IMG/VR virus record: IMGVR_UViG_3300009370_000001
Direction: 5' to 3' (one strand)
DNA length: 64,000 nucleotides
Origin: a virus
Lineage: Duplodnaviria > Caudoviricetes
The translations under genes and the position numbers were made by a program. The notes under the pieces are model-generated. The model saw nothing but the letters and a program-made list of their open reading frames with translations, was not told where the DNA came from and did not search any database. Positions within the stretch are counted from its first letter, which is position 1, and each line of letters opens with the position of its first letter. Shown here piece after piece: positions 483 to 63,644 of this stretch.

Positions 483-1036
483 TGGCAACAGTTTACGAAA
501 TCGTACAAGGCTTAGCACAAGCCGCCGCTAATGCATATGATGGCGCGTTAGGAGAAGACTACGAGCCTGATAAGCCCGGTATTCTTCGCCGAGAAGAGGG
601 TAATGCCCTCATCGATCAACGAGTGATGGATGGCTTCAATGTGAAGTTTTATGGGAATATGATGTGCCTTAGCTATCAATCAGAAATCCAACTTAAAGAA
701 GTTATCGCCGGCGGCTTTGAGGAAGATATCGATCAGCGCCTCACTGACATTTCAGGATGGCTTAAGAAAGAATACAAAAAGATTACTGGCGATTCGGTCA
801 GCCTGACGGCCGAGGGTGAAGTAGATATCCGCGTGGAAAATTCTTCTCGGGTACGAACCTGGGTAGTGGCGAAGAAGCACTATCGTGTGGGTGGCTTGGA
901 CGAATCTATGAATGATGATAATCGAGGTTCCACCAATCCTGTGGAAGCCAAATGGAAGACCTTTTTAGATCAAGGCGGCTGGAATGGTAAAGGCGGCACG
1001 CGCCCCGATAACGATACGAGGAAGAAAGAATCATGA
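482..1036 (+). CDS. Hypothetical protein, 184 aa
   Basis: Translationally coupled ORF with AGGA upstream; no motif recognised. Confidence 0.65.
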   Translation: MATVYEIVQGLAQAAANAYDGALGEDYEPDKPGILRREEGNALIDQRVMDGFNVKFYGNMMCLSYQSEIQLKEVIAGGFEEDIDQRLTDISGWLKKEYKKITGDSVSLTAEGEVDIRVENSSRVRTWVVAKKHYRVGGLDESMNDDNRGSTNPVEAKWKTFLDQGGWNGKGGTRPDNDTRKKES

Positions 1037-1377
1037 AAATTTCGATTGCACGACTCAAAGAGATTATTATGGAAGAAGTTGCGGGAGCAACCACTGAAGG
1101 TCACGATAAAGATTGGGGTATGGGCAAGGACGAAAAGTCTCGCACCCGACCCGGAGAAGAAGATTATACCGGGCACAAGGGAGACGAGTCTCATACGCAC
1201 CCCGGAGAACTGGATTATGAACATGATGGAGAAGATCTCGAAGGAAAAGCCAACCGCGTTCTCGCAGACTTACATGATGTAATGACGGCCGCAGGCCTTA
1301 ATGTTGATCTAACTGCGGATGTAAGCGATGATGATATCGAAGCCGAAGAAGAAATAGAAATCGTAGATGATGAATGA
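1033..1377 (+). CDS. Acidic hypothetical protein with N-terminal LKEIIMEE tag; candidate head-associated protein
   Basis: ATGA overlap with both neighbours. Internal ~19-aa duplication (RTRPGEEDY / HTHPGELDY) and a very acidic C-terminus. Confidence 0.6.
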   Translation: MKISIARLKEIIMEEVAGATTEGHDKDWGMGKDEKSRTRPGEEDYTGHKGDESHTHPGELDYEHDGEDLEGKANRVLADLHDVMTAAGLNVDLTADVSDDDIEAEEEIEIVDDE

Positions 1378-2960
1378 GTTTTCAATTAGACAAGAAACAG
1401 CAAGTCAACGAGATTCTGAAATGCGGTAAAGACCCAGCTTACTTTCTCACAAACTATGCTCGTATCTCTCACCCAATGCATGGGTTGATTTTATTTGATA
1501 CATATGATTTTCAAGATGCGCTCCTAAATGACTTTAATGATTATCGCTTTAATGTCATCCTTAAAGCACGTCAGCTTGGCATCTCTACAATCACAGCCGG
1601 CTATATCGTATGGATGATGCTATTTCATCGCGATAAGGCCATTTTAGTTATGGCAACCAAGTTCGCCACCGCCGGCAACCTCGTCAAAAAGGTTAAAGGT
1701 ATCATGCGCAATGTACCAGACTGGCTAAAGATTGCAACAATCAGCGTTGACAACCGCACATCTTTCGAGTTGTCCAATGGTTCCTCTATTAAAGCCGCGT
1801 CCACTTCGGGCGATGCCGGTCGTTCCGAAGCACTGTCTCTTTTGGTTCTCGACGAGGCCGCCCACATCGAAGGCTTAGAAGAATTATGGACTGGTCTATA
1901 TCCGACGTTGTCCACAGGTGGGCGTTGTATTGCGTTGTCTACCCCAAATGGTGTGGGAAACTGGTTTCACAAGACCTGTACCGAAGCAGATTCTGGAGTA
2001 AACAATTTTAATTTAACGACGTTACCGTGGGATGTCCACCCAGATCGAGATGAACAATGGTACACTAAAGAAACAAGAAACATGTCCAAGCGCCAGATTG
2101 CACAAGAATTACAATGTAATTTCAACACGTCTGGTGAAACAGTGATTGATCCCGAATGTATGGAATGGCTGCTATCGAATGTTAAAGAGCCCAAACATCG
2201 CACGGGATTTGACCGTAATTTTTGGATTTGGGAAGAATTTGATCCTACCTGTAATTATTTGATGGTGGTGGATGTATCTCGTGGCGATGGCGCCGATTTT
2301 TCTACATTTCATATTGTCAAATTAGAAACCTTAGAAGTCATCGGAGAATATCAAGGAAAACTAACTCCTGATTTATTTGCTAACATGCTTAATCAAGTCG
2401 GCCGAGAGTTTGGAAATGCGATGATGGTAGTAGAAAATAATAATATTGGCTATACAGTACTTGACAAACTTGTAGAATACGGTTATCCTAATATATATTA
2501 TTCTATAAAGTCAACGCATGAATATATTGAGCAACATCAAGCTGAATATAAAACTAACACGATTGCCGGCTTCTCTACTACACAGAAGACCCGACCTTTA
2601 ATAGTTGCAAAATTAGAAGAGTTTATAAGAAATAAACTAATTAAAGTGTATTCATCCCGCACGGTTAATGAAATGAAAACTTTTATTTGGAAAAATGGAA
2701 AGCCTCAAGCTATGAAGAGTTATAATGATGATTTGATTATGGCTTTAGCAATTGCATGTTGGGTGCGTGACACTGCTATTCAAACTAATGCACGTGATTT
2801 AAACTATCAGAAGGCGTTCGTAGATGCAATTATTACGACACGCACTACGATGAACACGACTATTTCGGGCCAACAGGGGTACAAACAAGAGAATGCCCTA
2901 GATAAAAAAACGACAGAGGCGGCAAAACTTTATGAACAATATAAATGGATTATTAAGTGA
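1374..2960 (+). CDS. terL: Terminase large subunit (T4 gp17-like)
   Basis: Walker A region LKARQLGIST, Walker B LLVLDEAAH, coupling motif STPNG, RNase H-like nuclease acidic motifs (VDVSRGDGADFS, NDDLIMALA). Confidence 0.95.
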   Translation: MSFQLDKKQQVNEILKCGKDPAYFLTNYARISHPMHGLILFDTYDFQDALLNDFNDYRFNVILKARQLGISTITAGYIVWMMLFHRDKAILVMATKFATAGNLVKKVKGIMRNVPDWLKIATISVDNRTSFELSNGSSIKAASTSGDAGRSEALSLLVLDEAAHIEGLEELWTGLYPTLSTGGRCIALSTPNGVGNWFHKTCTEADSGVNNFNLTTLPWDVHPDRDEQWYTKETRNMSKRQIAQELQCNFNTSGETVIDPECMEWLLSNVKEPKHRTGFDRNFWIWEEFDPTCNYLMVVDVSRGDGADFSTFHIVKLETLEVIGEYQGKLTPDLFANMLNQVGREFGNAMMVVENNNIGYTVLDKLVEYGYPNIYYSIKSTHEYIEQHQAEYKTNTIAGFSTTQKTRPLIVAKLEEFIRNKLIKVYSSRTVNEMKTFIWKNGKPQAMKSYNDDLIMALAIACWVRDTAIQTNARDLNYQKAFVDAIITTRTTMNTTISGQQGYKQENALDKKTTEAAKLYEQYKWIIK

Positions 2961-2968
2961 GATTATAA

Positions 2969-4939
2969 ATGGCAATTCAAGATAAAAACCCAGCAAACTC
3001 TGAAACGAGCTTATTCAAAGCGTTAACGCGTCTCTTCTCGGGTCCCATTGTTAACTATCGTTCTCAATCGGGACGTCGCATTCGGCGTCAACATTTAGAT
3101 AAATTTTCCTCTCGCTTTAAATCGGCATCGGGGCAACAGTTTAAAAAGACACTTTATAATCCTTTAGATGTTATTGCTACAAATGCGATTCAAAACCAAC
3201 GACGTTCAGAGCGTTATGTAGATTTTGATCAGATGGAATATATGCCTGAAATCGCATCTACGATGGACATCTATGCAGATGAGATGACAACATATTCTGA
3301 ACTGCGCCCGATGCTTAATGTCCGATGTCCTAATGAAGAAATTAGTGCGGTACTGGATGTCTTATTTGATAGCATCCTTAACTTAAAATACAATCTTTTT
3401 GGTTGGGCCCGCACGATGTGTAAATATGGTGATTTTTTCCTGTATGTTGATATCGATGACAAATATGGAGTGACATCTGTTCTACCGCTCCCGGCCCAAG
3501 AAGTTGAAAGACTAGAAGGTAAAGATGCCACCAACCCGAATTATGTGCAGTTTCAGTGGAACTCTGCTGGGATGACCTTTGAAAACTGGCAAGTTGCCCA
3601 TTTCCGCATCTTAGGAAATGATAAGTACATTCCGTATGGAACATCAATTTTGGAGCCAGCACGACGCATTTGGCGCCAGCTAGTGTTGATGGAAGATGCT
3701 ATGATGGCATATCGTGTTATCCGTTCTTCTGAGCGCCGAGTGTTTAAGATTGATGTCGGTTCTATTCCTCCCAATGAAGTCGAACAGTATATGGAAAAAA
3801 TTGTGACCAACCTTAAGCGTCATCAAGTTATTGATCCTGAAAACGGACGTGTGGATTTGCGATACAACCCAATGTCTATCGAAGAAGATTATTTCATCCC
3901 AGTTCGCGCTGGCTCGGTCACAGAGATCAAGAACCTCGCCGGCGGCACCAACACTACCGATATTGATGATATCAAGTATTTGCGTGATAAGCTTTTTTCC
4001 GCACTCAAGATACCTCAATCTTATCTAACGATGGGAGAAGGTGCCGAAGAAGACAAGACTACTCTTGCGCAGAAAGACATTCGTTTTGCAAGAACCATTC
4101 AGAGACTCCAAAGAGTTATTATCGCAGAGCTTACAAAGATTGGTATCATCCATCTGTACACATTAGGCTTCAGAGGCGACGACTTATTAAGCTTCAGCTT
4201 AACTCTCAATAACCCGTCCAAGATTGCAGAACTTCAAGAAATTGAGACCTGGAAGCAGAAGTTCGACATTGCCGCTGCAGCCACAGAAGGTTATTTCTCA
4301 CGGCGCTGGGTGTCCGAACATATCTTTGGTATGAATCATGAAGACTTTGGTCGCAATCAACGCGAAATGTATTATGATCGTAAGCACGACGCCGCTCTTC
4401 AGGCAGTCGCTGAAGCTGCTGCAGCCGAAGGCGCCGGCGGCGGAATGGGAGGCGATCTGGGGGGAGACCTTGGAGGCGATCTCGGAGGCGATCTCGGAGG
4501 AGATCTTGGTGGTGATCTTGGCGGAGGCGAGGAAATGCCCGCAGGTGAAGCCGGCGGTGATGAGGGAGGTGGCGATGATTCAGCGCTCCTAGCCGTCCCA
4601 CCCGGCTCTCGTAACGAGCCTCGTCTGACCCCTGGAGCAAAGGGAAAAGTATATTATCCTAAGAAGGTTGATGGCCGACCAGCAGGAGCCCGGACGCGCT
4701 CTATGGGCGCGAAGTACAATCGAGAAAAAGCTAGCTCGGCTATTCGGAATGTTGTCCCAGGCGCTGAGATCGGTTCCCTCGCAAAGATGGGCAGCTTGGG
4801 AAATGGTATTTATGAAGGACAAGCACCTATTTATAACGCAAGTGAGCTTTCTGAAGAAGAAAAGCTTTTTCACGTAAGCGATTCGATACGGGCGCTCCTT
4901 AAAGGATTAGAAGGATTGGAGAATAATAATGAAGGGTAG
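2969..4939 (+). CDS. Portal protein (T4 gp20-like) with a long disordered C-terminal tail
   Basis: gp20-like motifs YRVIRSSERRVFKIDVG, EDYFIPVR, DDIKYLRDKLFSALKIP; directly after the terminase gene. Confidence 0.92.
   Translation: MAIQDKNPANSETSLFKALTRLFSGPIVNYRSQSGRRIRRQHLDKFSSRFKSASGQQFKKTLYNPLDVIATNAIQNQRRSERYVDFDQMEYMPEIASTMDIYADEMTTYSELRPMLNVRCPNEEISAVLDVLFDSILNLKYNLFGWARTMCKYGDFFLYVDIDDKYGVTSVLPLPAQEVERLEGKDATNPNYVQFQWNSAGMTFENWQVAHFRILGNDKYIPYGTSILEPARRIWRQLVLMEDAMMAYRVIRSSERRVFKIDVGSIPPNEVEQYMEKIVTNLKRHQVIDPENGRVDLRYNPMSIEEDYFIPVRAGSVTEIKNLAGGTNTTDIDDIKYLRDKLFSALKIPQSYLTMGEGAEEDKTTLAQKDIRFARTIQRLQRVIIAELTKIGIIHLYTLGFRGDDLLSFSLTLNNPSKIAELQEIETWKQKFDIAAAATEGYFSRRWVSEHIFGMNHEDFGRNQREMYYDRKHDAALQAVAEAAAAEGAGGGMGGDLGGDLGGDLGGDLGGDLGGDLGGGEEMPAGEAGGDEGGGDDSALLAVPPGSRNEPRLTPGAKGKVYYPKKVDGRPAGARTRSMGAKYNREKASSAIRNVVPGAEIGSLAKMGSLGNGIYEGQAPIYNASELSEEEKLFHVSDSIRALLKGLEGLENNNEG
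4448..4522 (+). repeat. Six tandem GGDL codon-block repeats (12-nt unit) in the portal tail
   Basis: GGMGGDLGGDLGGDLGGDLGGDLGGDLGGG read directly; synonymous variation between units. Confidence 0.9.
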
Positions 4940-6285: not shown

Positions 6286-6834
6286 ATGAAACTCTTATTA
6301 GAACATTGGAATCGGTATCTCCAAGAAGAGGAAGAGGCGCGCCCTCTCTATGGCGACGAAAAAGAAGATGCCCCTGACTCCGAAGAGTCGACCGAAGAAT
6401 TTCAAAAATATGTAGAAGCAGAAAGGAAAAAAACTATGGCGGCATGCGCCGACGTTAGAGAATTTGAGCCCGAGCAACGCTCCAGCCCAGAATTTGCAAC
6501 CGCTTTAGAGAAGTGTAAAAAAGCTAATGAAGAACTAGAAAACAATATTCGAGAAAAATCTCCTTTTAATATTGGTGATAATCCCGACAATGCTCCCGCA
6601 GACCCTACACCCGAAGAGCCTCAACAAAACAAGGGGCGAGACGTACAAAACGTAATGCGGTCAAATCAAGTTAAATTAACCAACGTTGAGAAAGAAGTTG
6701 GTTCGATAGAACAGGATTTGGAAACTATTATACAGAGAGTTCAAGCCTTATTAGGTCGCGTCCGACAGGAACTTACAGAAAGCGATATTCGAGAGATCAT
6801 CAAAGAAGAATACAAGCTTTATCAGGAGCAGTAG
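6286..6834 (+). CDS. Hypothetical protein with terminal tags (MKLLLEHWNRYLQE ... IREIIKEEY); candidate capsid-internal protein
   Basis: 182-aa ORF; amphipathic E-rich motifs at both ends. Confidence 0.6.
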   Translation: MKLLLEHWNRYLQEEEEARPLYGDEKEDAPDSEESTEEFQKYVEAERKKTMAACADVREFEPEQRSSPEFATALEKCKKANEELENNIREKSPFNIGDNPDNAPADPTPEEPQQNKGRDVQNVMRSNQVKLTNVEKEVGSIEQDLETIIQRVQALLGRVRQELTESDIREIIKEEYKLYQEQ

Positions 6835-7139: not shown

Positions 7140-7185
7140 TAAGTGGATGCTGCAGCCGGTCAGACGGTGCTGCAAAGGTTCTTAG
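7117..7185 (+). CDS. 22-aa small ORF MNTNAWNNKWMLQPVRRCCKGS, not in the ORF track
   Basis: ATG at 7117 with AGGA 6 nt upstream; TAG at 7183-7185, two bases before the protease ATG. Confidence 0.5.
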   Translation: MNTNAWNNKWMLQPVRRCCKGS

Positions 7186-7187
7186 CT

Positions 7188-7796
7188 ATGGGAAAGAAAT
7201 TACTAAGAGAATATTACGCGCTTTGCGAAGGCGGCGTATGCCAAGATCTGTTAACGGAAGATGAGAAGCGCTTCGTTGCTAGCGGAGGAATGATGCTTTC
7301 GGGCAAACTCCAAGAAGCAGATGTGCAAAACGGCAACGGTCGTATTTACCCTTACCGTGTATTAATGCGAGAAATTGAAACTTACAAAAAACTCGTAAAA
7401 GAAAATCGTGCTCTCGGAGAGCTTGATCATCCAGATGATTCTGTCATCAATTTAAAGAATGCATCGCATATGGTGACTGATGTATGGATGGAAAATAAAA
7501 ATGTGATGGGCAAAGTAAAAGTACTGGACACCCCATCGGGCAATATCTTGCGCGGCCTTGTAAATAGCGGCGCACAGCTTGGTATCTCTTCACGAGGAAT
7601 GGGATCGGTGAGTGAGGCTCAAGGACAAACAATCGTCGAAGACGATTTCCAACTTATCTGTTTTGATTTTGTATCGGAACCCTCAACACCGGGAGCATAT
7701 ATGATGAAAGAGGCCAAAGACTTAAGCACTCCCAATGTCTTTACCAAAGCTGATCGTATCAATCGCTTATTGAACGAGGTATTGACGGATGAGTGA
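7188..7796 (+). CDS. Prohead maturation protease (T4 gp21-like)
   Basis: GELDHP, GISSRGMGS and FDFVSEPST catalytic motifs. ATG 7188 is preferred over GTG 7143. Confidence 0.92.
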   Translation: MGKKLLREYYALCEGGVCQDLLTEDEKRFVASGGMMLSGKLQEADVQNGNGRIYPYRVLMREIETYKKLVKENRALGELDHPDDSVINLKNASHMVTDVWMENKNVMGKVKVLDTPSGNILRGLVNSGAQLGISSRGMGSVSEAQGQTIVEDDFQLICFDFVSEPSTPGAYMMKEAKDLSTPNVFTKADRINRLLNEVLTDE

Positions 7797-8859
7797 GCAA
7801 TGGTCTAGTTATAGTGACCAGCAACAACGCGTTGCAACCTGGAGAACCTTTTTAAACGAAGGTTCTTTTCTGCAACGCTTGCGAAAAAAAAGCGCTCCCG
7901 GCCTGGAAGACATGTCGGATGCCGAACTTCGTGGAGTATTTGCGACCGACCCGGATCCAGCAAACCAGCGTCAAGCAGCATACCTCTATATTAGACGTGC
8001 AAGCAACACTGAAGAGCAACAAAGCCGCACAGAAGAATTAATGGACATTGCCAAGTCTAAAGATCCTACACCCACATCGCGTACTGGGACGACTGCCTTG
8101 GGTGAACCGGTCCCCCCCATCCCAGATGAGCCCTCACGACTTAGCACACGCATGCCCACCACTACTCCGGCACCAGTCGAAGACGAAGAGATGGTCGTTT
8201 GGGCAAAAAAAAGCGCACCTCCACTAAAAAAGGCTCTTGAAAGTGGGGGTTCCAAAGATGTAGCAGAGGCGCGCACTTGGATCGCACGCCGGACGGAGGA
8301 AGAAAAAAACGCTCTGATAAACGCTCTGGCAGATATCGGACACACTTTTGTAGAAGACGATTCCGCAGATGAGAGCCCTGGTTCAGAAGAGACAGATATA
8401 CCGGAACCTCTTCTTAATAGCGACGACCACACTTTAACTGTGATTCATTTTCTTGGATTGGATGACGCACCTTTGGATTCTATTCATTACCCAACAGACG
8501 AAGCCTGGATGAATGCATCGGAGAGGCAGAAGCGAATCTGGTATCGTTATTACGCGGATGTTATACAGGATCGCGGCCAGGATTCGGACGGTGAAGATCC
8601 TTTATATAGATCATTTCACAGCTTTTTCTTGAAGCCCGAGACGGATCTCTTTCTCCCAGAAGCGTTTCGCCAGTGGCTCGCTTGGGAAATTGAGAATCCT
8701 GAAAAAACACCTGAAGTAAAAGCTTGGTGCGGCGAAAAAGAATGCACCCCGGCCGACATTGAGAGCAAACGCGAGTCACTTAAAGAGCTTTATATATTGG
8801 AAGAATCTCAAATGAGACGGTGGCACCAATTAGCAGGAATTAACCCGAGAGTATTATGA
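7789..8859 (+). CDS. Hypothetical protein with terminal tags (WRTFLNEG ... MRRWHQLAGI); candidate head cargo protein
   Basis: 356-aa ORF with a Pro/Thr-rich linker; C-terminal motif resembles the scaffold end RMKRLAGI. Confidence 0.6.
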   Translation: MSEQWSSYSDQQQRVATWRTFLNEGSFLQRLRKKSAPGLEDMSDAELRGVFATDPDPANQRQAAYLYIRRASNTEEQQSRTEELMDIAKSKDPTPTSRTGTTALGEPVPPIPDEPSRLSTRMPTTTPAPVEDEEMVVWAKKSAPPLKKALESGGSKDVAEARTWIARRTEEEKNALINALADIGHTFVEDDSADESPGSEETDIPEPLLNSDDHTLTVIHFLGLDDAPLDSIHYPTDEAWMNASERQKRIWYRYYADVIQDRGQDSDGEDPLYRSFHSFFLKPETDLFLPEAFRQWLAWEIENPEKTPEVKAWCGEKECTPADIESKRESLKELYILEESQMRRWHQLAGINPRVL

Positions 8860-9275
8860 AAAAATCAGACCTTAAACAATTAATCAAGCCACTTGTCAAA
8901 GAGTGTATTCATGAAGTCCTCCTTGAAGAAGGGCTTTTATCCAATGTGGTTTCCGAAGTGGCGAAAGGGCTCCAGACGACCCCGCTTGTGGAAGTGCAGC
9001 AGTCTTCGAATCAGGGACCAACACCATCAGTCGGCATTCAGACGACCGAACAAGACGTGGCGTCACGGGCTCAGTTAAAAGAATATAGAAAAAAGATGAT
9101 GGAAGTTGTAGGAAAAGATGCGTATCAGGGAGTGGACTTATTTGAGAATACAGCCCCACTCTCAAATCACATTCCAGAACAAGGAAGCGCAGACTTAGGA
9201 GATCCCAGTGACGCTGGAGTGGACATTAGCTCTTTAGTAGGAAATTCCTCTAAAATTTGGCAGGCATTAAAGTAG
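8856..9275 (+). CDS. Hypothetical head-module protein
   Basis: 139 aa; N-terminal LKQLIKPLVKECIHEVLLEEG helix. Confidence 0.65.
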   Translation: MKKSDLKQLIKPLVKECIHEVLLEEGLLSNVVSEVAKGLQTTPLVEVQQSSNQGPTPSVGIQTTEQDVASRAQLKEYRKKMMEVVGKDAYQGVDLFENTAPLSNHIPEQGSADLGDPSDAGVDISSLVGNSSKIWQALK

Positions 9276-9279: not shown

Positions 9280-9522
9280 ATGGCCCGAGCAACCCACATT
9301 AAAGTAACTGCACGCGAGTGTCACGGAAACACCGAGCGCATGATCCGACGTTTTATTAAGAAAGTAAAAAAAGAACGTATTATTGAGAGCGTTAAGGACA
9401 AAAGACACTACAAAAAACCTTCTGTTGCAAAGAAGGAAAAACGCATTCGTGCGGCTCGGCAAAGGATCCGAGACGAACAAAAACGAAAGAGAGCGCAACA
9501 AAGGCGCGCTAGAAATATTTAG
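9280..9522 (+). CDS. rpsU: Phage-encoded 30S ribosomal protein bS21 homologue
   Basis: 80-aa basic protein with the bS21 pattern (IKV...NTERMIRRFIKKVKKERII...RHYKKPSVAKKEK); located in the head module. Confidence 0.8.
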   Translation: MARATHIKVTARECHGNTERMIRRFIKKVKKERIIESVKDKRHYKKPSVAKKEKRIRAARQRIRDEQKRKRAQQRRARNI

Positions 9523-9563: not shown

Positions 9564-9995
9564 ATGGCAAATTGGAATCCATCATGGAAAACAGAAGTAG
9601 GTTTAAACCATGTTGGGGCATATCAAGTTAGTGGGCAACCATACGCTTCTGGCAATCTTGACTGTGGAAATGCAAAACAAGTTGAGTTCCCCTATGTAAC
9701 TCGATGGTTTCAGGTTATTAATCGAGAAGCCTTCCCCGTGCGTGTTGGGTTTTCTCAATTGGGAGTTTCTGGGAGTAATTATTTTACTTGCCCGCCCTCT
9801 GCATCGGCTGCCCCAAGTAGTACGGGAGTGCTGGAGGCAAAGGTTTCTGAAGTGTGGCTATATAGCCCGGGCAACCCTACTGCCAAGGCCGATGTTGTGG
9901 CTGGCTTAACTAGTGTTCCGCGCGGAAGAACGACAGTTTCATCTTCCACCGATGGGCTTCTCCCATCATGGAGCGGTTCAGTAGGAGTAGGCTAG
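9564..9995 (+). CDS. Putative virion structural protein
   Basis: AGGAG RBS; beta-rich Gly/Ser/Val composition; follows the candidate late motif. Confidence 0.6.
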   Translation: MANWNPSWKTEVGLNHVGAYQVSGQPYASGNLDCGNAKQVEFPYVTRWFQVINREAFPVRVGFSQLGVSGSNYFTCPPSASAAPSSTGVLEAKVSEVWLYSPGNPTAKADVVAGLTSVPRGRTTVSSSTDGLLPSWSGSVGVG

Positions 9996-9996
9996 A

Positions 9997-10767
9997 ATGG
10001 CCACTTTTGGATGGGCATATATAAACTGCGAAGACTCTGGTTCTGCTAGCACTGGAGGACAAGCTGATGGTCCCACCGGATCAATACAGTTTGTAACCGG
10101 CTCTAACGCGACCAGTGGTTCGGCTAACTTGTTGTGGTATACCGCATCGTATGGCGGCTATAATGCCAATACACTTGTATTAACAGGCGCATTGGTCGTC
10201 ACCGGTGCGATTAGTGCTAGTCACTTTCACATTGAAAACATAGCAGTTATCGATGCCACCGGCTCTACTTATTTTGGTAATAGCTCCGACGATTCGCACG
10301 TTAGAACGGGAAGTCTTTATATTTCGCAGAACACTATTCTTGGAAGCGATTATACAGCCGACCATAAAATCAGTGGCAGTCTTCAAATTTATGGCAGTAG
10401 TTCTGTCTCTGGTCCTGCTCTCGCTATCGAATATTCACAGTCGGCCGGAATTCTCACGGTCCCCGGCTTACGGGTTCAATATACACAAATTACAGAGACT
10501 GCCGGCACTACGGGTTCGCAAGGCGACTATATTATTGGAATCCGCGCCGGCGATGCAAACACTAACTATCGGCTCCCCAGTGCCTCCTTAGCTGGAACGG
10601 GATCCTTGCGTGTCATTAAGGATGAGGTGGCATCGCGCTCAGGAACAAAAATTTATGTTTCCTCTTCGTCGCCCGATACCATTGATGGGCAAGCTAGCTA
10701 TATATTGACTGGCACAATGCCAGCTATTAATTTGTATTCTGACGGACACGATTGGTATATATTCTAG
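9997..10767 (+). CDS. Fibre/decoration-like virion protein, paralogue 1
   Basis: Gly/Ser/Thr-rich; C-terminal module ...LP...VIKDE...TIDG...LYSDGHDWYIF shared with neighbours. Confidence 0.65.
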   Translation: MATFGWAYINCEDSGSASTGGQADGPTGSIQFVTGSNATSGSANLLWYTASYGGYNANTLVLTGALVVTGAISASHFHIENIAVIDATGSTYFGNSSDDSHVRTGSLYISQNTILGSDYTADHKISGSLQIYGSSSVSGPALAIEYSQSAGILTVPGLRVQYTQITETAGTTGSQGDYIIGIRAGDANTNYRLPSASLAGTGSLRVIKDEVASRSGTKIYVSSSSPDTIDGQASYILTGTMPAINLYSDGHDWYIF

Positions 10768-10783
10768 GAGGTAAAAGTATCGT

Positions 10784-11581
10784 ATGGGCTACAATACTTT
10801 ATCAGGTACCGTCCTTGCTCCACTAGAATTTATTCCTGGCGACTTAGTAGTTGGGAATATCCTATCTGGTAATTTAAGCACTTCGGATGGATCCTCTGTT
10901 ATTAATGTTCCGCGGGTAACCAATCCTACCGATAATGCTATTCTCACCAACATAGGAGGAGACGCCAATAGTCTTACGTGTGAAACTAATCTCACTTTTG
11001 ATGGCAGTGAATTAGTAATCACGGGGTATGTGACGGCCAGCATTGGATTGTCTGCCTCTTATTTGGAGGGAGACGGAAGCCGTCTTAGCGGTATTACAGG
11101 CGGCGGCGGCGGTGATGGCATCTTCACGATTATAGATGGCTCTCACGCATATGTCACCAGTAGTCTTAATGTTGGTGGACAGACATCACCCACTCATCAA
11201 CTGGTGGTTAGCGGCACTGTTTCCTCTAGTGTTAATGTGTCTGCTTCAGCATTTTATGGATCGGCAATGATTTTAGCCGGCGGCTTATCCTTGAATCGAG
11301 TATCGGTGAGTGGTCATGTAACAGCTTCTAAAAACGATTATTATCTAGGCGTGGATTCTACCAATACAGCCATAGAAATTCGCCTCTTAAATGCTGCTCT
11401 ATTGGACAGCGGCCAAACTTATGTGGTAAAGGACGAGAGTGGCAACGCTGATAACAACAATATAACGATTAGGACCAGCGGATCCCAGACTATTGATGGA
11501 CAAAATGCAGTAGTTTTGATGTCCCCTCACGCATCAATCTCGATTTATTGTAATGGGTCCGATAAATACTTTATTTATTGA
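10784..11581 (+). CDS. Fibre/decoration-like virion protein, paralogue 2
   Basis: AGGAGG RBS; shared C-terminal module (VVKDE...TIDGQ...YCNGSDKYFIY) and NLTFDG and GDGS motifs. Confidence 0.65.
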   Translation: MGYNTLSGTVLAPLEFIPGDLVVGNILSGNLSTSDGSSVINVPRVTNPTDNAILTNIGGDANSLTCETNLTFDGSELVITGYVTASIGLSASYLEGDGSRLSGITGGGGGDGIFTIIDGSHAYVTSSLNVGGQTSPTHQLVVSGTVSSSVNVSASAFYGSAMILAGGLSLNRVSVSGHVTASKNDYYLGVDSTNTAIEIRLLNAALLDSGQTYVVKDESGNADNNNITIRTSGSQTIDGQNAVVLMSPHASISIYCNGSDKYFIY

Positions 11582-11601
11582 GTTTTTATATACTGGCGCC
11601 A

Positions 11602-11609
11602 ACTAATTA
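11602..11609 (+). promoter_or_regulatory. Candidate late promoter variant ACTAATTA
   Basis: Intergenic; 94 nt before ATG 11704. Confidence 0.5.
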
Positions 11610-11703
11610 ATAGCGAGCCCACATGCAAATGTGGTGCTTGGGGTGCTTGCTGTATAACAAGCATCCTGCCTAAAAAAAACTATAATATGGAGGGTTTTTA
11701 AAA

Positions 11704-13287: not shown

Positions 13288-13331
13288 TCTCGAACTTGTT
13301 TCAGATGAAGAATTTCATTCTTTAAAATATT

Positions 13332-13366
13332 GGGCGCCCCTCCTTGTGGGGGGCGTCCTCTTTTTT
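13332..13366 (+). terminator. Rho-independent terminator
   Basis: GC-rich stem GGGCGCCCCTC / GGGGGGCGTCC followed by T6. Confidence 0.85.
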
Positions 13367-13370
13367 ATAA

Positions 13371-13378
13371 ACTATTTA
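13371..13378 (+). promoter_or_regulatory. Candidate late promoter core ACTATTTA
   Basis: Immediately after the terminator; 45 nt before ATG 13424. Confidence 0.6.
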
Positions 13379-16764: not shown

Positions 16765-16772
16765 ACTATTTA
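16765..16772 (+). promoter_or_regulatory. Candidate late promoter core ACTATTTA (scaffold-capsid operon)
   Basis: Intergenic; 32 nt before ATG 16805, which has an AGGAG RBS. Confidence 0.6.
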
Positions 16773-16804: not shown

Positions 16805-17983
16805 ATGTCCACTCTTTTGAAAGACGCCATCGTCGACGCTCAAAGCTTGCGTGAAGCAGCTTTAAAAAGCGCGGAAACTACCGTGATTGACAAATACGCA
16901 ACAGAAGTTCGCGAAACCCTGACTAAGTTATTAGAACAGGATGAGATGGAAGATCCACTAGGCGCAGAATTAGAAGCGCCCCCCGCAATGGACCTAGGGG
17001 CCCCCGAAGGTGGTATGGATCCGATGGGCGCCGAAACTGACGCGGGCACTGGAGAACAAGTAGCCGCAAATATTCCCCTTGCCGCGACGGACAACCTTTC
17101 AGAGAACGAAGGCGAAAATTTAGAACGTCTTCCGCGTAGTGGAGAAGACGTCGAGATAGAGATTAACCTTGATGCTCTGCAAGAAGCAGTTCGAACTCTC
17201 CACGATGAACAAGAGATCAACCTCAATGAACAAACACTGGTAGAACTCCTGTCAGAAGACGAAGAGGATCTTGAGGAAGTGCAATCACCCGGTGTCTCGG
17301 CAGCAGCCGAAGCCGAAGCAGACGATGATCAAATGAATAGTCTCCTGAACCCCGGCTCGAAGAAAGAAGATGATGAAAACGTCGATGCCGCAGAGATGTC
17401 AGCCGAAGGCTTAGAAATCACTGATGAATTAATTGAGGATATCGTCGAAAGATTGACGGTAGACATGGGCGCCACCTTAAAAGGTTGGGCCGGCCGCTCC
17501 TCAGAAGATATGAAATATGAATTGGAGAGAGCGCTAGCACATCGTCGCAGCACTGATTTCCAAGATGAATTAGATACTTTAAAGAAGGCTCAAGAAGAGT
17601 TAGTTTTCGAAAATAAACAACTTAACGAGTCCCTTGAACAATATAAGCAAGTAACTGGAGAATTACGACAAGGATTGAATGATGTCAACCTTTCTAATGC
17701 TCGCTTGCTTTACACGAACCGTGTGCTCAGAAATACCTCCTTAAATGAGCGGCAAAAAACAAAGATTGCCGACGCTATTTCGAAAGCTGGTTCAGTAACA
17801 GAAGCCAAGACGATATATCATACGCTTGAAAACGCAACGCCGGCCGCACCACAGCGCGGCCCACAATCGTTGAGTGAAGCCATTACTCGCCGCAGCACTT
17901 CTGTTATTCGTGCTTCTCGTCAAGAGAGCACTCCATCCGATCCCATTGCGGAAAGGATGAAAAGACTAGCAGGCATCAAATGA
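16805..17983 (+). CDS. Prohead scaffolding protein (gp22-like role)
   Basis: Highly acidic with a coiled-coil segment; directly upstream of the major capsid gene; ends RMKRLAGIK. Confidence 0.75.
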   Translation: MSTLLKDAIVDAQSLREAALKSAETTVIDKYATEVRETLTKLLEQDEMEDPLGAELEAPPAMDLGAPEGGMDPMGAETDAGTGEQVAANIPLAATDNLSENEGENLERLPRSGEDVEIEINLDALQEAVRTLHDEQEINLNEQTLVELLSEDEEDLEEVQSPGVSAAAEAEADDDQMNSLLNPGSKKEDDENVDAAEMSAEGLEITDELIEDIVERLTVDMGATLKGWAGRSSEDMKYELERALAHRRSTDFQDELDTLKKAQEELVFENKQLNESLEQYKQVTGELRQGLNDVNLSNARLLYTNRVLRNTSLNERQKTKIADAISKAGSVTEAKTIYHTLENATPAAPQRGPQSLSEAITRRSTSVIRASRQESTPSDPIAERMKRLAGIK

Positions 17984-18021: not shown

Positions 18022-19812
18022 ATGGCTGGTATTATTGATAGGTTGACCGAAGGTGTTGTCAACCGTGATATGCGCGCAGAAGGTCACGCTTTGTTATCAA
18101 AGTGGGAGCGCACAGGACTTTTAGAGGGTCTTGATAATGACCGTAAGAAGCAGTCTATGGCTAGGTTACTTGAGAACCAAGCTAAAGAGCTTCTTCGTGA
18201 AAACTCTACGATGTCTGGTGGTGATGTTGAAGGCTTTGCAGCCGTCGCGTTCCCCATCGTCCGTCGTGTTTTTGCAGGACTGATTGCTAACGATCTTGTT
18301 AGTGTTCAGCCGATGAGCTTACCCTCGGGTCTCATCTTCTTCCTGGACTTCGTGTTCTCGCCCAATTTGGGAGACAGTACGGGTCCACAAACCGACCGGT
18401 TTGGTAACCTTGCTGACAAGTCCATTTATGGTACGAATCAGGTTGGTTCACAAATCACTGGCGGTGTCGACTTGGTCAGCACTGATGGTAGTGGCTTCGG
18501 TGGTCCTCGGACCTCTGCCGCGCGCGGTTATGCATATGCATCCCCGAGTGGCTCCGTAACCAACACCACGGCTCAGTACGCAGTACGCGCTCAGTTCAAC
18601 CTTAATGGTAGTGAAACGGACGCAAACAAGAAGTATATCGAGTATGATCCCGATCTTCTTGCGTTGTCTGGAAGTGGCTACAAGGTTAGTGTTTGGGACC
18701 TTACAAAGCAGCTGTTTATCAACCAAGACGCTGATTTCGACAACGTCGCAGCTTTCGAGGTAACAAGCACTGCATTGAACACTGCACTTTCGGGTGTTGT
18801 TGGTGACAGCTACGCGCTGGTACGTCGATTGACACGCGTTGTCACGGCTGCTGATTCCGCTCAATCTGTGGAGAGTGTACGCTTTACTGTCGTTTCTCTC
18901 TCTGCCTCGGTTGGACACATTGCCGAGTCCGGCAACTGGGTAACCCAGGTTCCGATCCGTGACAACTTCAATGCTGCAACCGCTATGGGTGCTGTCGTTG
19001 GTGCTGCGGTTTGGGGACTCGAAGGTAACCCTGAGATCCCCGAGATCGACATCAAGGTGGACAGTACGGCTGTTACCGCGATGACCAAGAAGCTCAAGGC
19101 CAAGTGGACCCCGGAGTTAGGACAAGATCTTAACGCCTACCACAACCTTGATGCTGAGGTTGAGTTGACCAGCATTCTCTCTGAGCAAGTTGCTCTTGAG
19201 ATTGACCGCGAGATCCTTGGTGACCTCGTTGGTGGTGCAACTGCCGGTACTTATTACTGGTCACGTTCACCCGGTTTGTTTGTCGATAAGACGAGTGGCG
19301 TGGAAATTGGAGCAGCTACTAAGGCTCCCGACTTCACCGGTACTGTGAGTGAGTGGTATGAGACCCTCATTGAAACTATCAATGATGTCTCCGCACAGAT
19401 CCATCGCAAGACATTGCGTGGTGGTGCTAACTTCATCGTCTGCGGACCTGAAGTTGCCAACATTCTCGAATTCACGGCTGGTTTCCGTGCCTCTGTTACG
19501 GCAGATGATGAAACCGGTACCGTGGGTGCTGTCAAGACTGGATCTCTTTCCAAGAAGTTTGACGTCATTGTTGACCCATACTTCCTGCGGAACGTGGTTC
19601 TGGTCGGACGTCGTGGTTCCTCTTTCCTTGAAAGCGGATATGTATACGCACCTTATGTGCCGTTACAGACCACACCCACTATCTTTGGCCCTGAAGACTT
19701 CGTGCCCCGCAAGGGCGTGATGACTCGGTACGCCAAGAAGATGGTGCGTCCCGATATGTACGGTCTTGTTATCGTGCGCGGTCTCTTAGGTGAGTCCGGA
19801 TCTGCTACCTAA
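18022..19812 (+). CDS. Major capsid protein (T4 gp23-like)
   Basis: gp23 motifs VQPMSLPSGLIF, KLKAKWTPELGQDLNAYHNLDAEVELTSILSEQVALEIDREIL, YAPYVPL, GVMTRY; AGGAG RBS. Confidence 0.95.
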   Translation: MAGIIDRLTEGVVNRDMRAEGHALLSKWERTGLLEGLDNDRKKQSMARLLENQAKELLRENSTMSGGDVEGFAAVAFPIVRRVFAGLIANDLVSVQPMSLPSGLIFFLDFVFSPNLGDSTGPQTDRFGNLADKSIYGTNQVGSQITGGVDLVSTDGSGFGGPRTSAARGYAYASPSGSVTNTTAQYAVRAQFNLNGSETDANKKYIEYDPDLLALSGSGYKVSVWDLTKQLFINQDADFDNVAAFEVTSTALNTALSGVVGDSYALVRRLTRVVTAADSAQSVESVRFTVVSLSASVGHIAESGNWVTQVPIRDNFNAATAMGAVVGAAVWGLEGNPEIPEIDIKVDSTAVTAMTKKLKAKWTPELGQDLNAYHNLDAEVELTSILSEQVALEIDREILGDLVGGATAGTYYWSRSPGLFVDKTSGVEIGAATKAPDFTGTVSEWYETLIETINDVSAQIHRKTLRGGANFIVCGPEVANILEFTAGFRASVTADDETGTVGAVKTGSLSKKFDVIVDPYFLRNVVLVGRRGSSFLESGYVYAPYVPLQTTPTIFGPEDFVPRKGVMTRYAKKMVRPDMYGLVIVRGLLGESGSAT

Positions 19813-59875: not shown

Positions 59876-59883
59876 ACTATTTA
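59876..59883 (+). promoter_or_regulatory. Candidate late promoter core ACTATTTA
   Basis: After an AAAGTC/GACTTT hairpin; 39 nt before ATG 59923. Confidence 0.55.
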
Positions 59884-59922: not shown

Positions 59923-60828
59923 ATGGCTCGTAAAAAACTGTTAACAGAAGGCGAGGTTAGGCAATTTATGAAGCTTGCTAACCTTGGACCTTTAAGTGAG
60001 AATTATTTCTCAAATAACCCTCTCGAAGAAGAGGAACTGGAAGATGAGTTAGAAGCTACCGAAGATGAACTCGGTGCTGAAGATCATTTTGCCGACGAAG
60101 AAGCTGACGAATTGGATGCTCTTGGTGACGAAGGCGGTGACGCAGATAATGAAGCGTTACTGGCTCGCGTTGTTCAAGCTGTAGCAGCTGAATTAGGAGT
60201 GGAAGTAGATGTTGAAGGCGCCGACGCTGAAGGGGGTGAAGAACTCGAAGTCGACGCAGAATTAGAAGAGCCCCTCCCCGGTGGCGATGAACTTGAAATG
60301 GGCGCGGAAGAGGAACTAGAACTTCCCGGTGGCCGTGACATGTATCAAGAAACGCAAGGCGCCGATGACCGCGAAGATGAGCACCTTGGAGCCGAAGACG
60401 GCGCCGAGAGCGGCAAGAAGCAAAGCGAGAAGGATCGCCGCAAGGAAATGCGTGGCGCCCGTCGAGCAGCCGGTGAGTCTGGAGACCCTGTAGCCACCCA
60501 AGAAGGCCAAGAAGTCGACGAGGCCATGGCTTCCGGAGGTTCCGGCGGTGCTTTCAAGAGCCAACGTGCGCAGAGTACACGACAACGCCATGGCGGCGGA
60601 CTTGGTCGCGACAAATGCTATGACGCCGATGGAAATCGTGTTGAATGTGACGGTTCTCAGGGTGAAGTTGCTAAGCGCCAAGCTGCAGAAGCGGTTGAAA
60701 TCGACCAAGATGCCATCGTGGCAGAGGTCGCCCGTCGAGTGGCAGAGCGCTTAAGCGCAGCTAAGAAGAATGAAGAGATGGCCGATCAGTTAGCTGAGCG
60801 TATCTTTCAACGCTTGACCGCAAAATAG
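59923..60828 (+). CDS. Very acidic low-complexity protein with N-terminal LLTEGEVRQFMKLANL tag; scaffold- or core-like
   Basis: AAGGAG RBS; Glu/Asp/Gly-rich; amphipathic helices at both ends. Confidence 0.65.
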   Translation: MARKKLLTEGEVRQFMKLANLGPLSENYFSNNPLEEEELEDELEATEDELGAEDHFADEEADELDALGDEGGDADNEALLARVVQAVAAELGVEVDVEGADAEGGEELEVDAELEEPLPGGDELEMGAEEELELPGGRDMYQETQGADDREDEHLGAEDGAESGKKQSEKDRRKEMRGARRAAGESGDPVATQEGQEVDEAMASGGSGGAFKSQRAQSTRQRHGGGLGRDKCYDADGNRVECDGSQGEVAKRQAAEAVEIDQDAIVAEVARRVAERLSAAKKNEEMADQLAERIFQRLTAK

Positions 60829-60912: not shown

Positions 60913-61320
60913 GTGGAATGGGCGCTGTTTACATTAATGTTTATCTTCGGGTATATTACTTGTAAGATATTCTATTTTATCAAAGCTACGCGCGCATCCG
61001 TGTTATTGTTGAAAGCGGCGCAGTTAGTATCGTTAGGTCTTCTTGCACGTGCAATGGAAGATTTTTATTACGCTAAAATCTATCGAATGGAAAAGATGAT
61101 CGAGTCCCAAGAGTCTGATCACAATATTAGCGCCTTCTCTTATCGGATGGAAGAAGAGCTAGCTGCCTATAAAAAGAAATCGGTTCAAGGACTTGTTGAG
61201 CTTCATCCCTCTTTTTTTAAAGAAATTGTAGAGTTTGATGATTGGGCGTCTGGAATGGAGTATCTTAAAAAGAATGAAGAAGTAGTTCGCGCATTTTTTA
61301 GTAGGAGAGAAGATGATTAA
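60913..61320 (+). CDS. Hypothetical protein with an N-terminal transmembrane helix
   Basis: AGGAG RBS, GTG start, hydrophobic first ~20 aa. Confidence 0.6.
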   Translation: MEWALFTLMFIFGYITCKIFYFIKATRASVLLLKAAQLVSLGLLARAMEDFYYAKIYRMEKMIESQESDHNISAFSYRMEEELAAYKKKSVQGLVELHPSFFKEIVEFDDWASGMEYLKKNEEVVRAFFSRREDD

Positions 61321-61969
61321 TCGTATTAAAGAAGCTATTGGAGCTTTTGTAACCGAAGAAGAAAAACCGGAAGAAGACGCAGCACGCATCGTAATTGTAG
61401 ATCCTGCCGCTTTGCAGGCTGCAGCCAAGGAAGATGAACCAGCGGCTCATTTGTTAGGGCTTTTCGCTGCCGTAGAAGAAGAAAAAATTGCAGAAGTAAT
61501 CCATGCTCTCTTGGTAGTAGTGGAAAATGAACACAAGAAAGAAAAAGAAGCCCGCATCCCTGTAGATTTTTATCTTTCTACTTATGGCGGATCCGCTGAC
61601 GATATGTTTGCCCTCTATGATATAATGCGGCTTGTACGTGATGACATCACTATTCGGACGGTAGGAGTAGGGAAGGTTATGTCCGCGGGAGTACTCCTTC
61701 TGGCGGCCGGCACAAAAGGACAACGAAGTATCGCTAAGAACTGTCGTATTATGATTCATTCCGTAATCGGAGGCAACCAAGGCGACCTTCATAATATGTT
61801 GAATGAGATGGAGGCTATTGAACAACTACAACAAATGTTCATAGATTGTTTAGTAACGGAAACAAAAATGACAAAAACTAGGTTGAAAAAAATGCTAGAT
61901 CGTAAAGTTAATGTCTATTTATCAGCAGAAGAAGCAGTCGAATTGGGTATTGCTGACGTCATTATTTAA
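61313..61969 (+). CDS. clpP: ClpP-like protease, copy 2 (Asp position occupied by Asn)
   Basis: LSTYGGSA, VMSAG (Ser), MIHS (His), KVNVYLSAEEAVELGIAD. Confidence 0.85.
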   Translation: MINRIKEAIGAFVTEEEKPEEDAARIVIVDPAALQAAAKEDEPAAHLLGLFAAVEEEKIAEVIHALLVVVENEHKKEKEARIPVDFYLSTYGGSADDMFALYDIMRLVRDDITIRTVGVGKVMSAGVLLLAAGTKGQRSIAKNCRIMIHSVIGGNQGDLHNMLNEMEAIEQLQQMFIDCLVTETKMTKTRLKKMLDRKVNVYLSAEEAVELGIADVII

Positions 61970-61982
61970 GGAAACATACATT

Positions 61983-63644
61983 ATGGATTTGCGCGAGATC
62001 TTAAGAGAAGAATACGAAAAGAATATAAAAGAGCTTATGGATCCCAGTGCACTTTTGAAATTAATTGAAGAAGCAATGGAAACGTCGTTTCAACTGGATG
62101 AAAAAGCCGAAGCTGCAGCCGGCGTTTCCTTTGACCCCCAACAGATGTTGCTTCGAATGATTCCAGATATCGCAGTATCCGAAATTGGGTGGTCGGACGT
62201 GCGCTCTGTAGAGGATGAAGCAGGACACGCCGAAGTAGTATCAGGACCACAGCGTAAGCTGCTGGAAGATTATCTTGCGAATATCGCCGGCGGCAGCTTT
62301 GAAGAGCGGATCGCCTCTATCTCTAGCTTTTATGAGAGAGGATCGGCAGAGTTGCAGGAAGGAACTAATGACCGTATTCAACTTATTACTAATGCAATCT
62401 CTTATTTGGTATTCTACAAAACTCTAACGAAGATTGTTACCAACTTTAATGCCTCCTCTGCTGGCTTCAGCTTCGAATCCTTTTTAGCAACGTTGGTAAG
62501 CGGTGAGCAAGTGCCGGCCAATACCGGCACAATTGCCGATTACATTGACCGGTCAACAGGTAAAGATATTCCCGTGAGCTTAAAGCTCTACAAAGAAGGA
62601 CAATTGGAAGTGGGAGGAAGCTATACCGATCTTGTCAATGACCTTGTTGATCCCACTAAGTGGCCGGGATTCCCAAGCAAGATGCGCTATGTTGTATGCA
62701 CCAAAAACCTTCAAGGCGAAGGTCTAGAGCAACAGGGACAGATTAACGTTTATCAATGGGATTTTACACTCGACAACGTAATGGATATTCTTGCTATCAC
62801 TAAAGACTCATCCAGCAAGAACATTATGCTTCCCCGCCAAGTGGTGTCGGCCCTCTTAGCGGGGCAACAGAGTGGCACAGATGTGGAACTCCCCGAGCGT
62901 TCTCCTGCACCTACCGCTGACGATCTTGGAAGGCTCTTCGTCGATTACCTTATAACTAATTTAGAGGAGATTGAGTATATTGAAAATGCTGCCGAGGTAG
63001 GGAAGGAAATAGGTGATGCTCTCAACTGGGCCCAAGACGATGAACTTTTTAATAAGAATAAAACACGAGGAGTGGGTGGTCTTAATGCAGCTTACGTAAA
63101 AAATTGGGTGACGAAGAATATTACTAATGAAAAAGCCATTCGAGACCAGATCAAAAACGCCATTGTTAATGCGAACGTAGCTGTGGTAGCTTCTCAAAAA
63201 GCTAGTGCTCGGAAAGACGCGCGTAATATGGAAATCCAACGAATGCGAGAAGCAGGTGAGTTTTTAAATCCCGAAGAATCAGCGATTGAATATAAAAAGC
63301 TGGGCCCACGCCAAAAAGCCATGGCGCTCAAGAATTCATATGGAGTATTGCAGACCGGACACTTTGCGCTTAACAACACCCAGTCTTTGATGTCCGAGCA
63401 GCCGGTCAATGCAGAAGCCCTAGGCTCTATTAAGGTGGGTACCAAATATGTAGCCGAAGCGCTCAACCAAGTGCGAGACATTCTTAATGAAGAAGTATAC
63501 GAAATCTTTGAATCATTAAAGATCTTGTCTGACAGCTTAAACTCGTTCTTTGCAAATGGGCTGAAAGATGACACCCTGGCCAAGACCTCCATTGATAATG
63601 CCGAGAACATTCAAACAAAAGAAATCTTACAGCCCGATGAATAA
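61983..63644 (+). CDS. Hypothetical 553-aa protein with N-terminal LREILREEY tag
   Basis: ATG 61983 after AAGGA; contains AGFSFESFLA...IADY...VSLKLY, weakly reminiscent of a PD-(D/E)xK nuclease core. Confidence 0.6.
   Translation: MDLREILREEYEKNIKELMDPSALLKLIEEAMETSFQLDEKAEAAAGVSFDPQQMLLRMIPDIAVSEIGWSDVRSVEDEAGHAEVVSGPQRKLLEDYLANIAGGSFEERIASISSFYERGSAELQEGTNDRIQLITNAISYLVFYKTLTKIVTNFNASSAGFSFESFLATLVSGEQVPANTGTIADYIDRSTGKDIPVSLKLYKEGQLEVGGSYTDLVNDLVDPTKWPGFPSKMRYVVCTKNLQGEGLEQQGQINVYQWDFTLDNVMDILAITKDSSSKNIMLPRQVVSALLAGQQSGTDVELPERSPAPTADDLGRLFVDYLITNLEEIEYIENAAEVGKEIGDALNWAQDDELFNKNKTRGVGGLNAAYVKNWVTKNITNEKAIRDQIKNAIVNANVAVVASQKASARKDARNMEIQRMREAGEFLNPEESAIEYKKLGPRQKAMALKNSYGVLQTGHFALNNTQSLMSEQPVNAEALGSIKVGTKYVAEALNQVRDILNEEVYEIFESLKILSDSLNSFFANGLKDDTLAKTSIDNAENIQTKEILQPDE

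Follow-up and report, generated by a model that had tools for sequence, protein, structure and literature searches.

Short terminal peptides on unrelated proteins of a T4-like marine phage: candidate removable address labels for the prohead

Why should otherwise unrelated proteins of a single phage begin or end with similar short helical peptides, many of which close on a glutamate? The question is raised by a stretch of 64,000 nucleotides of the viral record IMGVR_UViG_3300009370_000001 (Duplodnaviria; Caudoviricetes), here called the window. It covers bases 116192-180191 of an IMG/VR phage genome of 203,204 bp, which is complete and has direct terminal repeats. The phage is a T4-like marine phage of 203 kb, and the window, in which the + strand carries nearly all genes, holds its T4-type head-assembly module at the left end. 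The original prediction read the peptides as one family of glutamate-terminated modular tags that load varied cargo, including injected effectors, into the prohead, and 10 of its 10 quoted strings were found in the sequence at the named genes. We arrive at a related and more differentiated reading, to which we assign a probability of roughly 0.6: the short terminal peptides would be removable prohead address labels, comprising two N-terminal leaders and a scaffold-derived tail, that are cut off by a gp21-type protease. Genes are named below by their start positions in the window.

The frequency of the peptides was examined in the 227 + strand open reading frames (ORFs) of the 203-kb genome, with shuffles that preserve each terminus's own composition. 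The pattern [LIVMF][LIVM]xE (hhxE) was observed 67 times in the first 35 residues, compared with 32.7 times in the shuffles (about 2-fold; z, 6.2), and is thus commoner than in shuffled proteins. With D, K, R, Q, S, or T in place of the final E the counts were flat, with N there was a weak excess (ratio, 1.52; z, 2.7), and hhxE itself was not enriched in protein interiors (ratio, 0.91). When obvious leader paralogues were left out, the N-terminal excess remained (52 versus 29.9; z, 4.3). With identical ORF calling, the N-terminal hhxE ratio was 0.66 in lambda, 1.30 in T4, 1.62 in the Flavobacterium phage immuto, and 2.07 in this phage, while hhxD was flat in all four genomes.

A single tag family was not recovered. 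Profiles and comparison with more than 80 related head modules split the list of peptides, as far as sequence can tell, into five things: a type-1 leader, a type-2 leader, a C-terminal tail, capsid and protease sites homologous to those of T4, and family-specific ends on the proteins 59923 and 61983. Nearly all of the modules have the T4 cut motif [LI]-x-E at their end or next to them. The description of all tags as ending in glutamate does not hold either, because the LAGI tail of the scaffold and of 7789 does not end in E.

The genomic setting of these peptides is a module whose gene order matches the 20-67-68-21-22-23 order of T4. The large terminase (1374-2960) and the portal (2969-4939) are followed by two conserved genes of unknown function (4929 and 5746), by 6286, by 6834, which encodes a small hydrophobic protein and lies between 6286 and the protease, and then by the protease, 7789, 8856, 9280, a fibre-like paralogue block located between 9280 and the scaffold, the scaffold, and the major capsid protein (MCP). 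Orthologues of 4929, 5746, 6834, the protease, 8856, and 9280 are present in 59 to 80 of 80 related head modules. In the same set 6286 has 0 homologues and 7789 has 1; each of these two genes fills a variable slot of the conserved head module. The phage has no close cultured relative; the nearest are immuto (MCP identity, 45%), Microcystis phage Mel-JY01, and Rhodothermus RM378, and a blastn search of the scaffold-MCP region against deposited phages gave no match. The group is abundant in metagenomes, with at least 598 pattern-matching stretches in IMG/VR, of which at least 596 encode a relative of the protease and at least 585 a relative of the MCP.

Slot A lies between the orthologues of 5746 and 6834. 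It is empty in 34 of 76 loci, and when occupied it holds one gene for a protein of 69 to 316 amino acids (aa); the 30 bodies found there fall into 7 BLAST clusters, nearly all of them bearing the type-1 leader. This leader is a portable 14-residue peptide, MKLLLENWRxFLxE (in its broader form MK[LV][LI][LM]ENW[RD]x[FY]LxE), with L, V, or I at position 12 in 30 of 36 leaders and E at position 14 in 23 of 36. With a profile seeded solely from other phages, eight proteins of the genome were found to begin with it (independent E values [iE] of 2e-9 to 2e-5). One of them is the slot A protein of this phage (6286-6834), whose leader MKLLLEHWNRYLQEE is located at 6286..6330 on the + strand (iE, 3.8e-7). 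The same protein carries near its C terminus a copy of the type-2 core, IREIIKEE (6787..6810, + strand). A search of immuto and Mel-JY01 with the type-1 profile gave no match.

The type-2 leader is MKITKSQLKQIIKEE, with the broader form MK[IV][TS]K[SQ]xLKQIIKEE[LI]. Its core gave 124 matches in 2,041 ORFs, 81 of which were in the first 25 residues, a region that makes up 10% of all residues. At the N terminus the core almost always begins at residue 8, with IIxEE at residues 11 to 15, and 11 copies are C-terminal, including that of 6286 and those of slot B proteins in two related loci (L026 and L061). The 74 ORFs that begin with the type-2 leader belong to 39 body clusters (defined by BLASTP at 1e-3), and their genes concentrate on the terminase side of the module and between 6834 and the protease. 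On the terminase side of this phage lies 1033-1377, a gene for an acidic protein of 114 aa directly 5' of the large terminase gene, which has the type-2 leader MKISIARLKEIIMEE at 1033..1077 on the + strand. Its orthologues vary in length from 53 to 121 aa (among them those of L002, L003, L006, L008, and L011); what they keep is the 20-residue leader and the C-terminal heptapeptide IEIVDDE, which overlaps the start of the terminase, and the middle is replaced or shortened. A related end is found on 8856-9275, by sequence a universal small head-module protein with a type-2-like N terminus, MKKSDLKQLIKPLVKECIHEVLLEEG (8856..8933, + strand), which is near-invariant and contains three hhxE sites; the 60 orthologues are 47 to 84% identical overall, and their first 40 or so residues are almost unchanged. 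The type-2 profile found one weak match each in immuto and Mel-JY01. The immuto match is the exact N terminus of a 252-aa protein (113144-113902 of its record), which begins MKKSQLRQIIKE, a type-2-like leader.

Slot B, between the protease and 8856, holds proteins of 140 to 914 aa in 15 body clusters. They mostly begin with MSxWSSF...WRxFLxE or with a type-2-like leader. The occupant in this phage (7789-8859) has the extended leader MSEQWSSY...WRTFLNE (7789..7860, + strand), the last 7 residues of which equal the second half of the type-1 leader. Taken alone it is a weak match to the type-1 profile (iE, 1.3), and the candidate WRTFLNEG was therefore rejected as a full type-1 leader, as the match is weak and covers half of the leader; it is counted as a member because of the slot B family pattern. 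In an alignment of 60 slot proteins the mean column identity was 8% and the leader was the only consensus, and a Pfam search of 60 slot A and slot B proteins returned no domains. The expectation of variable bodies under conserved termini was thus borne out, with 7 body clusters in slot A, 15 in slot B, and 39 behind type-2 leaders, all under kept end-peptides.

Many slot B proteins also share a C-terminal tail, which is present in 26 of 45; leader and tail occur together in 11 of 40 unique proteins. The tail, R[WM]xx[LI]AGI followed by 1 to 6 residues, gave 101 matches, 99 of them ending no more than 5 residues from the C terminus, compared with 1 match for the reversed motif. It terminates 74 scaffolds and at least 6 unrelated body clusters. 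In this genome a profile of the tail seeded from relatives matches only the scaffold (1e-6) and 7789 (iE, 0.005), whose C terminus consists of a cut-type site, ILEE, followed by SQMRRWHQLAGINPRVL (8794..8856, + strand). Among 39 non-scaffold variants, 29 have [LIVMF]-x-E within 12 residues upstream of the tail, where 11.5 would be expected (0 of 500 shuffles reached 29). The scaffolding protein itself (16805..17983, + strand) is assigned from its composition and its position, that of gp22, directly 5' of the MCP, and carries the tail IAERMKRLAGIK at 17945-17980. R384, M385, L388, A389, and G390 are invariant in 31 scaffold sequences whose remaining columns are about 40% identical. These comparisons indicate that the tail is the scaffold's own C terminus, reused on unrelated proteins. 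A complex prediction of the full MCP with the last 60 scaffold residues, made without controls, scored 0.00 and speaks on neither side of the question of binding.

The scaffold tail is also present in cultured phages. The protein at the scaffold position of immuto ends SRWQKLAGIIK, and that of Mel-JY01 ends ILNE...ERMKKLAGIVK. The immuto gene (125582-126823 of its record; 1225-2466 in our locus L179) is annotated as a "DNA polymerase phi-like protein"; it lies directly 5' of the MCP gene, ends in the scaffold tail, and is 33% identical over about 105 residues (E, 9e-8) to the C-terminal part of the scaffold of this phage. Judged by sequence and position, it is almost certainly a mis-annotated scaffolding protein. 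In addition, a small ORF located after the protease of immuto contains KWQAKFLKE.

The strings quoted from the protease and the capsid protein belong to a different class, and instead of portable tags they are homologues of T4 gp21 and gp23 propeptide sites. The prohead protease is of the S77/gp21 family (Pfam Peptidase_S77 [PF03420], 3e-30; PHROG 207, 5e-54) and has 32% identity to T4 gp21 (E, 1e-26). Its ORF spans 7143-7796, and its true start is the internal Met16 (MGKKLLREY; 7188..7796, + strand), which makes KKLLREY residues 3 to 9 of the protease. Relatives begin with M[AGS]K[VK]LLREY, and the C-terminal end RLLNEVLTDE (7764-7793) is found in all relatives as RINRLLNEVLxxE. The counterpart of the N-terminal site is LLIE at residues 6 to 9 of T4 gp21, and LLNE aligns with the LAE site of T4 gp21; LLIE9 and the C-terminal LAE of gp21 have been discussed as processing or targeting sites (PMC9026906). 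The MCP (18022-19812) is of the gp23 type, with a Pfam Gp23 match (1e-71) that begins at residue 70. Its first 60 residues are almost invariant (37 sequences, with a sequence logo of 36 MCPs) and form a candidate N-terminal propeptide of about 60 aa (18022..18201, + strand) with invariant RLTE10, LLE35, LLE51, and LLRE60. RLTEG falls within this near-invariant N terminus and is therefore taken as part of the capsid propeptide. The block LLSKWERTGLLEGL parallels LLNKWKPLLEGEGL of T4 gp23, and the MCP has a gp23-like N-terminal segment with conserved [LI]-x-E sites before the mature fold, at which cleavage is predicted. We had also considered MAGII at the start of the MCP as an echo of the scaffold's LAGIK; this candidate was dropped, as 56% of MCPs begin MSSI.

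The prediction also extended the tag to genes more than 40 kb from the head module, where its two examples parted ways. The first, 59923, encodes an acidic protein of 301 aa (59923..60828, + strand; isoelectric point [pI], 4.2) with the N-terminal end MARKKLLTEGEVRQFMKLANLGPLSENYF (59923-60009) and the C-terminal end LAERIFQRLTAK. Its family has at least 436 homologues, with a near-invariant N-terminal end of 29 residues (sequence logo of 99 N termini), a conserved C-terminal end, and a variable acidic middle. Its N-terminal helix, VRQFMKLANL, was tried as a copy of the scaffold tail and rejected, as the tail profile does not match it. It shares with the scaffold a promoter-like motif, ACTATTTA, located at 59876..59883 (+ strand), 47 nucleotides (nt) upstream of 59923, and kept upstream of 4 of 4 orthologues despite diverged flanks. 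The protein is a candidate late-type protein and may be a core component. The second gene does have LREILREE at its true start; it encodes a conserved protein of 553 aa (61983-63644) with the E-tag-like N terminus MDLREILREEY (61983..62015, + strand). Its orthologues have about 52% identity over their full length, have the N-terminal end xxILQEEY, and always follow a ClpP-like gene, here 61313-61969 (+ strand; Pfam, 1.7e-31); the pair is syntenic in 8 relatives. PHROG and Pfam searches found no family for 61983, and an atlas search returned unnamed viral clusters and a chance-level lead to a restriction enzyme. The operon, which begins with the small membrane-like gene 60913 and continues with the ClpP-like gene and 61983, is preceded by a sigma70-type TTGACA-N17-TATATT and not by ACTATTTA. 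The ClpP-like pair forms a protease system of its own beside the head protease, and 61983 is probably unrelated to the tags or the head.

The motif ACTATTTA occurs at 11 sites in the window, compared with 2.2 expected, and 10 of them are on the + strand (305, 7010, 9525, 13371, 16765, 19876, 23325, 26345, 28135, and 59876). It lies 25 to 65 nt upstream of the scaffold, sheath, tube, fibre-like, and 19995 genes, and it also precedes leader genes elsewhere in the genome (18256, type 1; 106766, type 2; and 183447). The copy at 16765..16772 (+ strand) is 40 nt upstream of the scaffold gene, and the motif is found at about this distance in 25 of 27 relatives, against a background of 2.9%. The T4 late promoter TATAAATA had just 2 coding-strand sites in our search and is not used. 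From its distribution, ACTATTTA is likely a late-type promoter element, different from that of T4.

The observations, namely the motif families, their positional specificity, the variable bodies, selection at the level of the peptide, the protease, and the shared promoter-like motif, can be joined in one mechanism. The type-1 and type-2 leaders, which would be interchangeable, would bind the assembling scaffold core in the manner of the T4 capsid targeting sequence (CTS). The scaffold C termini of 80alpha and P22 bind the inside of the capsid shell, and the tail, hxE-(3 to 8 residues)-R[WM]xx[LI]AGIx, would dock there likewise. The gp21-type serine protease would then cut after the Glu of [LI]-x-E, by which the body would be freed and the label removed. 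The predicted modular prohead-loading tag thus stands insofar as there is a gp21-type protease, a gp23-type capsid, and portable ends near [LI]-x-E, and falls insofar as there are at least three tags and not one. A more far-reaching version, in which a three-signal, protease-gated code loads a large, fast-changing set of proteins into the capsid and the slots of the head module serve as its cargo bay across a clade of at least about 600 IMG/VR contigs, is put forward tentatively, at somewhat less than even odds.

The role of injected effectors is not indicated for the tagged proteins of the window, which are acidic (pI, 4.2 to 5.0), have several internal [LI]-x-E sites and no recognisable domain, and look more like core proteins, such as gp67 of T4; PHROG and Pfam searches with 1033, 6286, 7789, 8856, and 59923 gave no match. 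The injected internal proteins of T4 are basic. Protein charge was tried as a discriminator between injected and expelled proteins and was found not to be informative, the whole proteome being acidic.

Several points weigh against the reading of the peptides as address labels. Glu14 is absent from about a third of the type-1 leaders, and [LIVMF]-x-E precedes the scaffold's own tail in only 19 of 51 variants. The leaders are not homologous to the T4 CTS (MKTYQEFIAE or MKTFKEF...), and the layout alone is alike (MK, hydrophobic, E, aromatic, [IL]xE). With an acidic, helix-prone proteome and a mild hhxE excess in T4 as well, the genome-wide excess could be partly generic, and acidic tagged proteins with no known domain may be expelled core proteins and not delivered cargo. 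Finally, the literature searched on cultured relatives reports no virion proteomics, N-terminomics, or expression data, and packaging and cleavage are proposed by analogy, as are the binding partners.

The alternative that survives best, while still unlikely, is that the end-peptides are only protease-removable propeptides, serving latency, quality control, or as preferred cut sites, and hold no address information, so that the proteins would reach the prohead otherwise or never. The near-universal presence of [LI]-x-E in or beside the modules would be expected of such propeptides, and in the T4 CTS the determinants of targeting and of processing are separable (PMC9026906), the binding proposed here being an analogy. 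A cut site, however, needs about 3 residues, whereas the conserved stretch has 14 to 16, set at a constant distance from the start of proteins with unrelated bodies, and the conserved residues of the tail (R, W/M, L, A, G, and I) come after the cut site and match the scaffold's end exactly.

We consider it more doubtful still that the leaders, as general amphipathic helices, have another purpose and occur in the head module by coincidence; such a purpose could be to associate with membranes, to oligomerise, or to be recognised by the phage's ClpP-like protease. The peptides are indeed amphipathic, a ClpP-like gene lies in the window, and many leader genes are found outside the head module. On the other hand, dozens of relatives have slots reserved for leader genes among the portal, protease, and scaffold genes, and 8856, the protease, and the MCP propeptide bear the same kind of site. 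The promoter-like motif, moreover, is common to structural genes, whereas the ClpP-like operon has a different type of promoter.

A reading at the nucleotide level is very improbable: the conserved gene starts would be cassettes, either recombination junctions or elements for translation initiation, by which genes are more readily swapped, and the peptide would be a by-product. Gene gain and loss do occur exactly at the slots. However, Leu3 of the type-1 leader is encoded by all of CTC, TTG, TTA, CTG, CTT, and CTA, there is synonymous variation at other positions too, and the 20 nt upstream of the leader are not conserved, which together argue for selection on the peptide and not on a DNA cassette; the tail, at the opposite end of the protein, is equally conserved. 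Lastly, a chance likeness of Glu- and Leu-rich helical ends, which 61983, the helix of 59923, and RLTEG might suggest as they stand outside every portable family, is hardly credible for the class as a whole, having been largely refuted already by the local-composition shuffles, the residue, interior, and lambda controls, and within-genome profile matches that reach 1e-6 to 1e-9.

Two further features of the head module were noted. An 80-aa basic protein (9280-9522, + strand) has a weak bS21 match (PHROG 21469; E, 4.5e-4) and is kept in 59 related head modules; the protein at the equivalent position in Mel-JY01 is annotated as RpsU/S21, which together point to a ribosomal-protein gene inside the head module. 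Between the protease block and the scaffold and MCP genes lie five consecutive fibre-like genes (9564-16704, + strand) encoding proteins of 143 to 727 aa. Several of these begin MAY(N/L), and they have similar aromatic C termini (HDWYIF, DKYFIY, GKWKIF, INWWIIG, and YTWAIIG), which suggests a paralogue array.

If the address-label reading is confirmed, it would pick out, among the many unknown genes of abundant ocean phages, those for core proteins or for proteins delivered with the virion, give sequence rules by which packaged proteins can be predicted from genomes alone, and supply new short tags for loading T4-type capsids. Immuto and Mel-JY01 carry the scaffold tail, and immuto also carries a type-2-like leader, which makes the idea testable at the bench.

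The T4 CTS is the textbook example of head loading; it has been used to package foreign proteins and serves a handful of T4 proteins. In the T4 sequences, IPII and IPIII start with MKTYQEFIAE, gp24 has ...ELLRE, gp22 has ...QLIAE, and gp67 has NFLIEGEE, so that T4's own prohead proteins carry hhxE near their ends. Besides ipI, ipII, and ipIII, the T4 record holds at about 19108-19130 (- strand; loci L086 and L175) a 54-aa ORF that starts with a CTS-like MKTFKEFIKE. T4 gp21 cleaves after L/I-x-E, and the internal proteins are brought to the scaffold core by propeptides of 10 to 19 residues that are afterwards cut off; Alt, and probably gp21 too, loses a piece from each end (PMC9026906, PMC3012670). 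As in T4, the leaders described here are short N-terminal peptides that start with MK, contain hydrophobic or aromatic residues, end in [LI]-x-E, and sit on unrelated, fast-evolving proteins; the gp21-family protease gene lies between portal and scaffold, tagged genes are found inside and far from the head module, and some proteins, like Alt, bear signals at both ends. Unlike the CTS, the leaders are of 14 to 16 aa and of at least two interchangeable types, are complemented by a C-terminal tail, precede mostly acidic bodies, and are known from sequence alone. The family is also far larger than the three or four members of T4 and has dedicated variable slots in the head module.

Processing on a larger scale is known from phiKZ, 201phi2-1, and SPN3US, which have propeptide-bearing inner-body and ejection proteins (PMC5694885, PMC7411985; PMC9026906). 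In these giant phages, as predicted for the phage described here, a gp21-related protease cleaves many head proteins after Glu, and the propeptides contain several redundant cut sites. In contrast to the phage described here, those phages use another short motif, and a portable leader common to several proteins has not been described in them; mass spectrometry has proven their processing, whereas here it is predicted.

For the tail, the closest precedent is the helix-and-hook of the 80alpha scaffolding protein and SaPI1 CpmB, a shared C-terminal element (RIIK) that binds the capsid protein (Dearborn et al. 2017, PMC5644958). Here, too, the last 10 to 20 residues of the scaffold, a short helix with a basic or hydrophobic hook, also end non-scaffold proteins, and the slot B and immuto variants end in ...LAGIIK, comparable to the 80alpha hook. 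In contrast to CpmB, the carriers are the phage's own variable proteins and not a satellite's size redirector, the capsid is of the gp23 type, a protease cut motif usually stands before the tail, and binding to the MCP is proposed by analogy. If true, this would make the phage the first of the T4 type in which cargo encoded by the phage itself uses the scaffold-capsid contact. The CTS was earlier proposed as a general route by which T4-like phages load varied proteins, and the general idea is already established for T4 (PMC9026906, PMC3012670); the system of this phage would be an enlarged, multi-signal version of T4-type capsid addressing.

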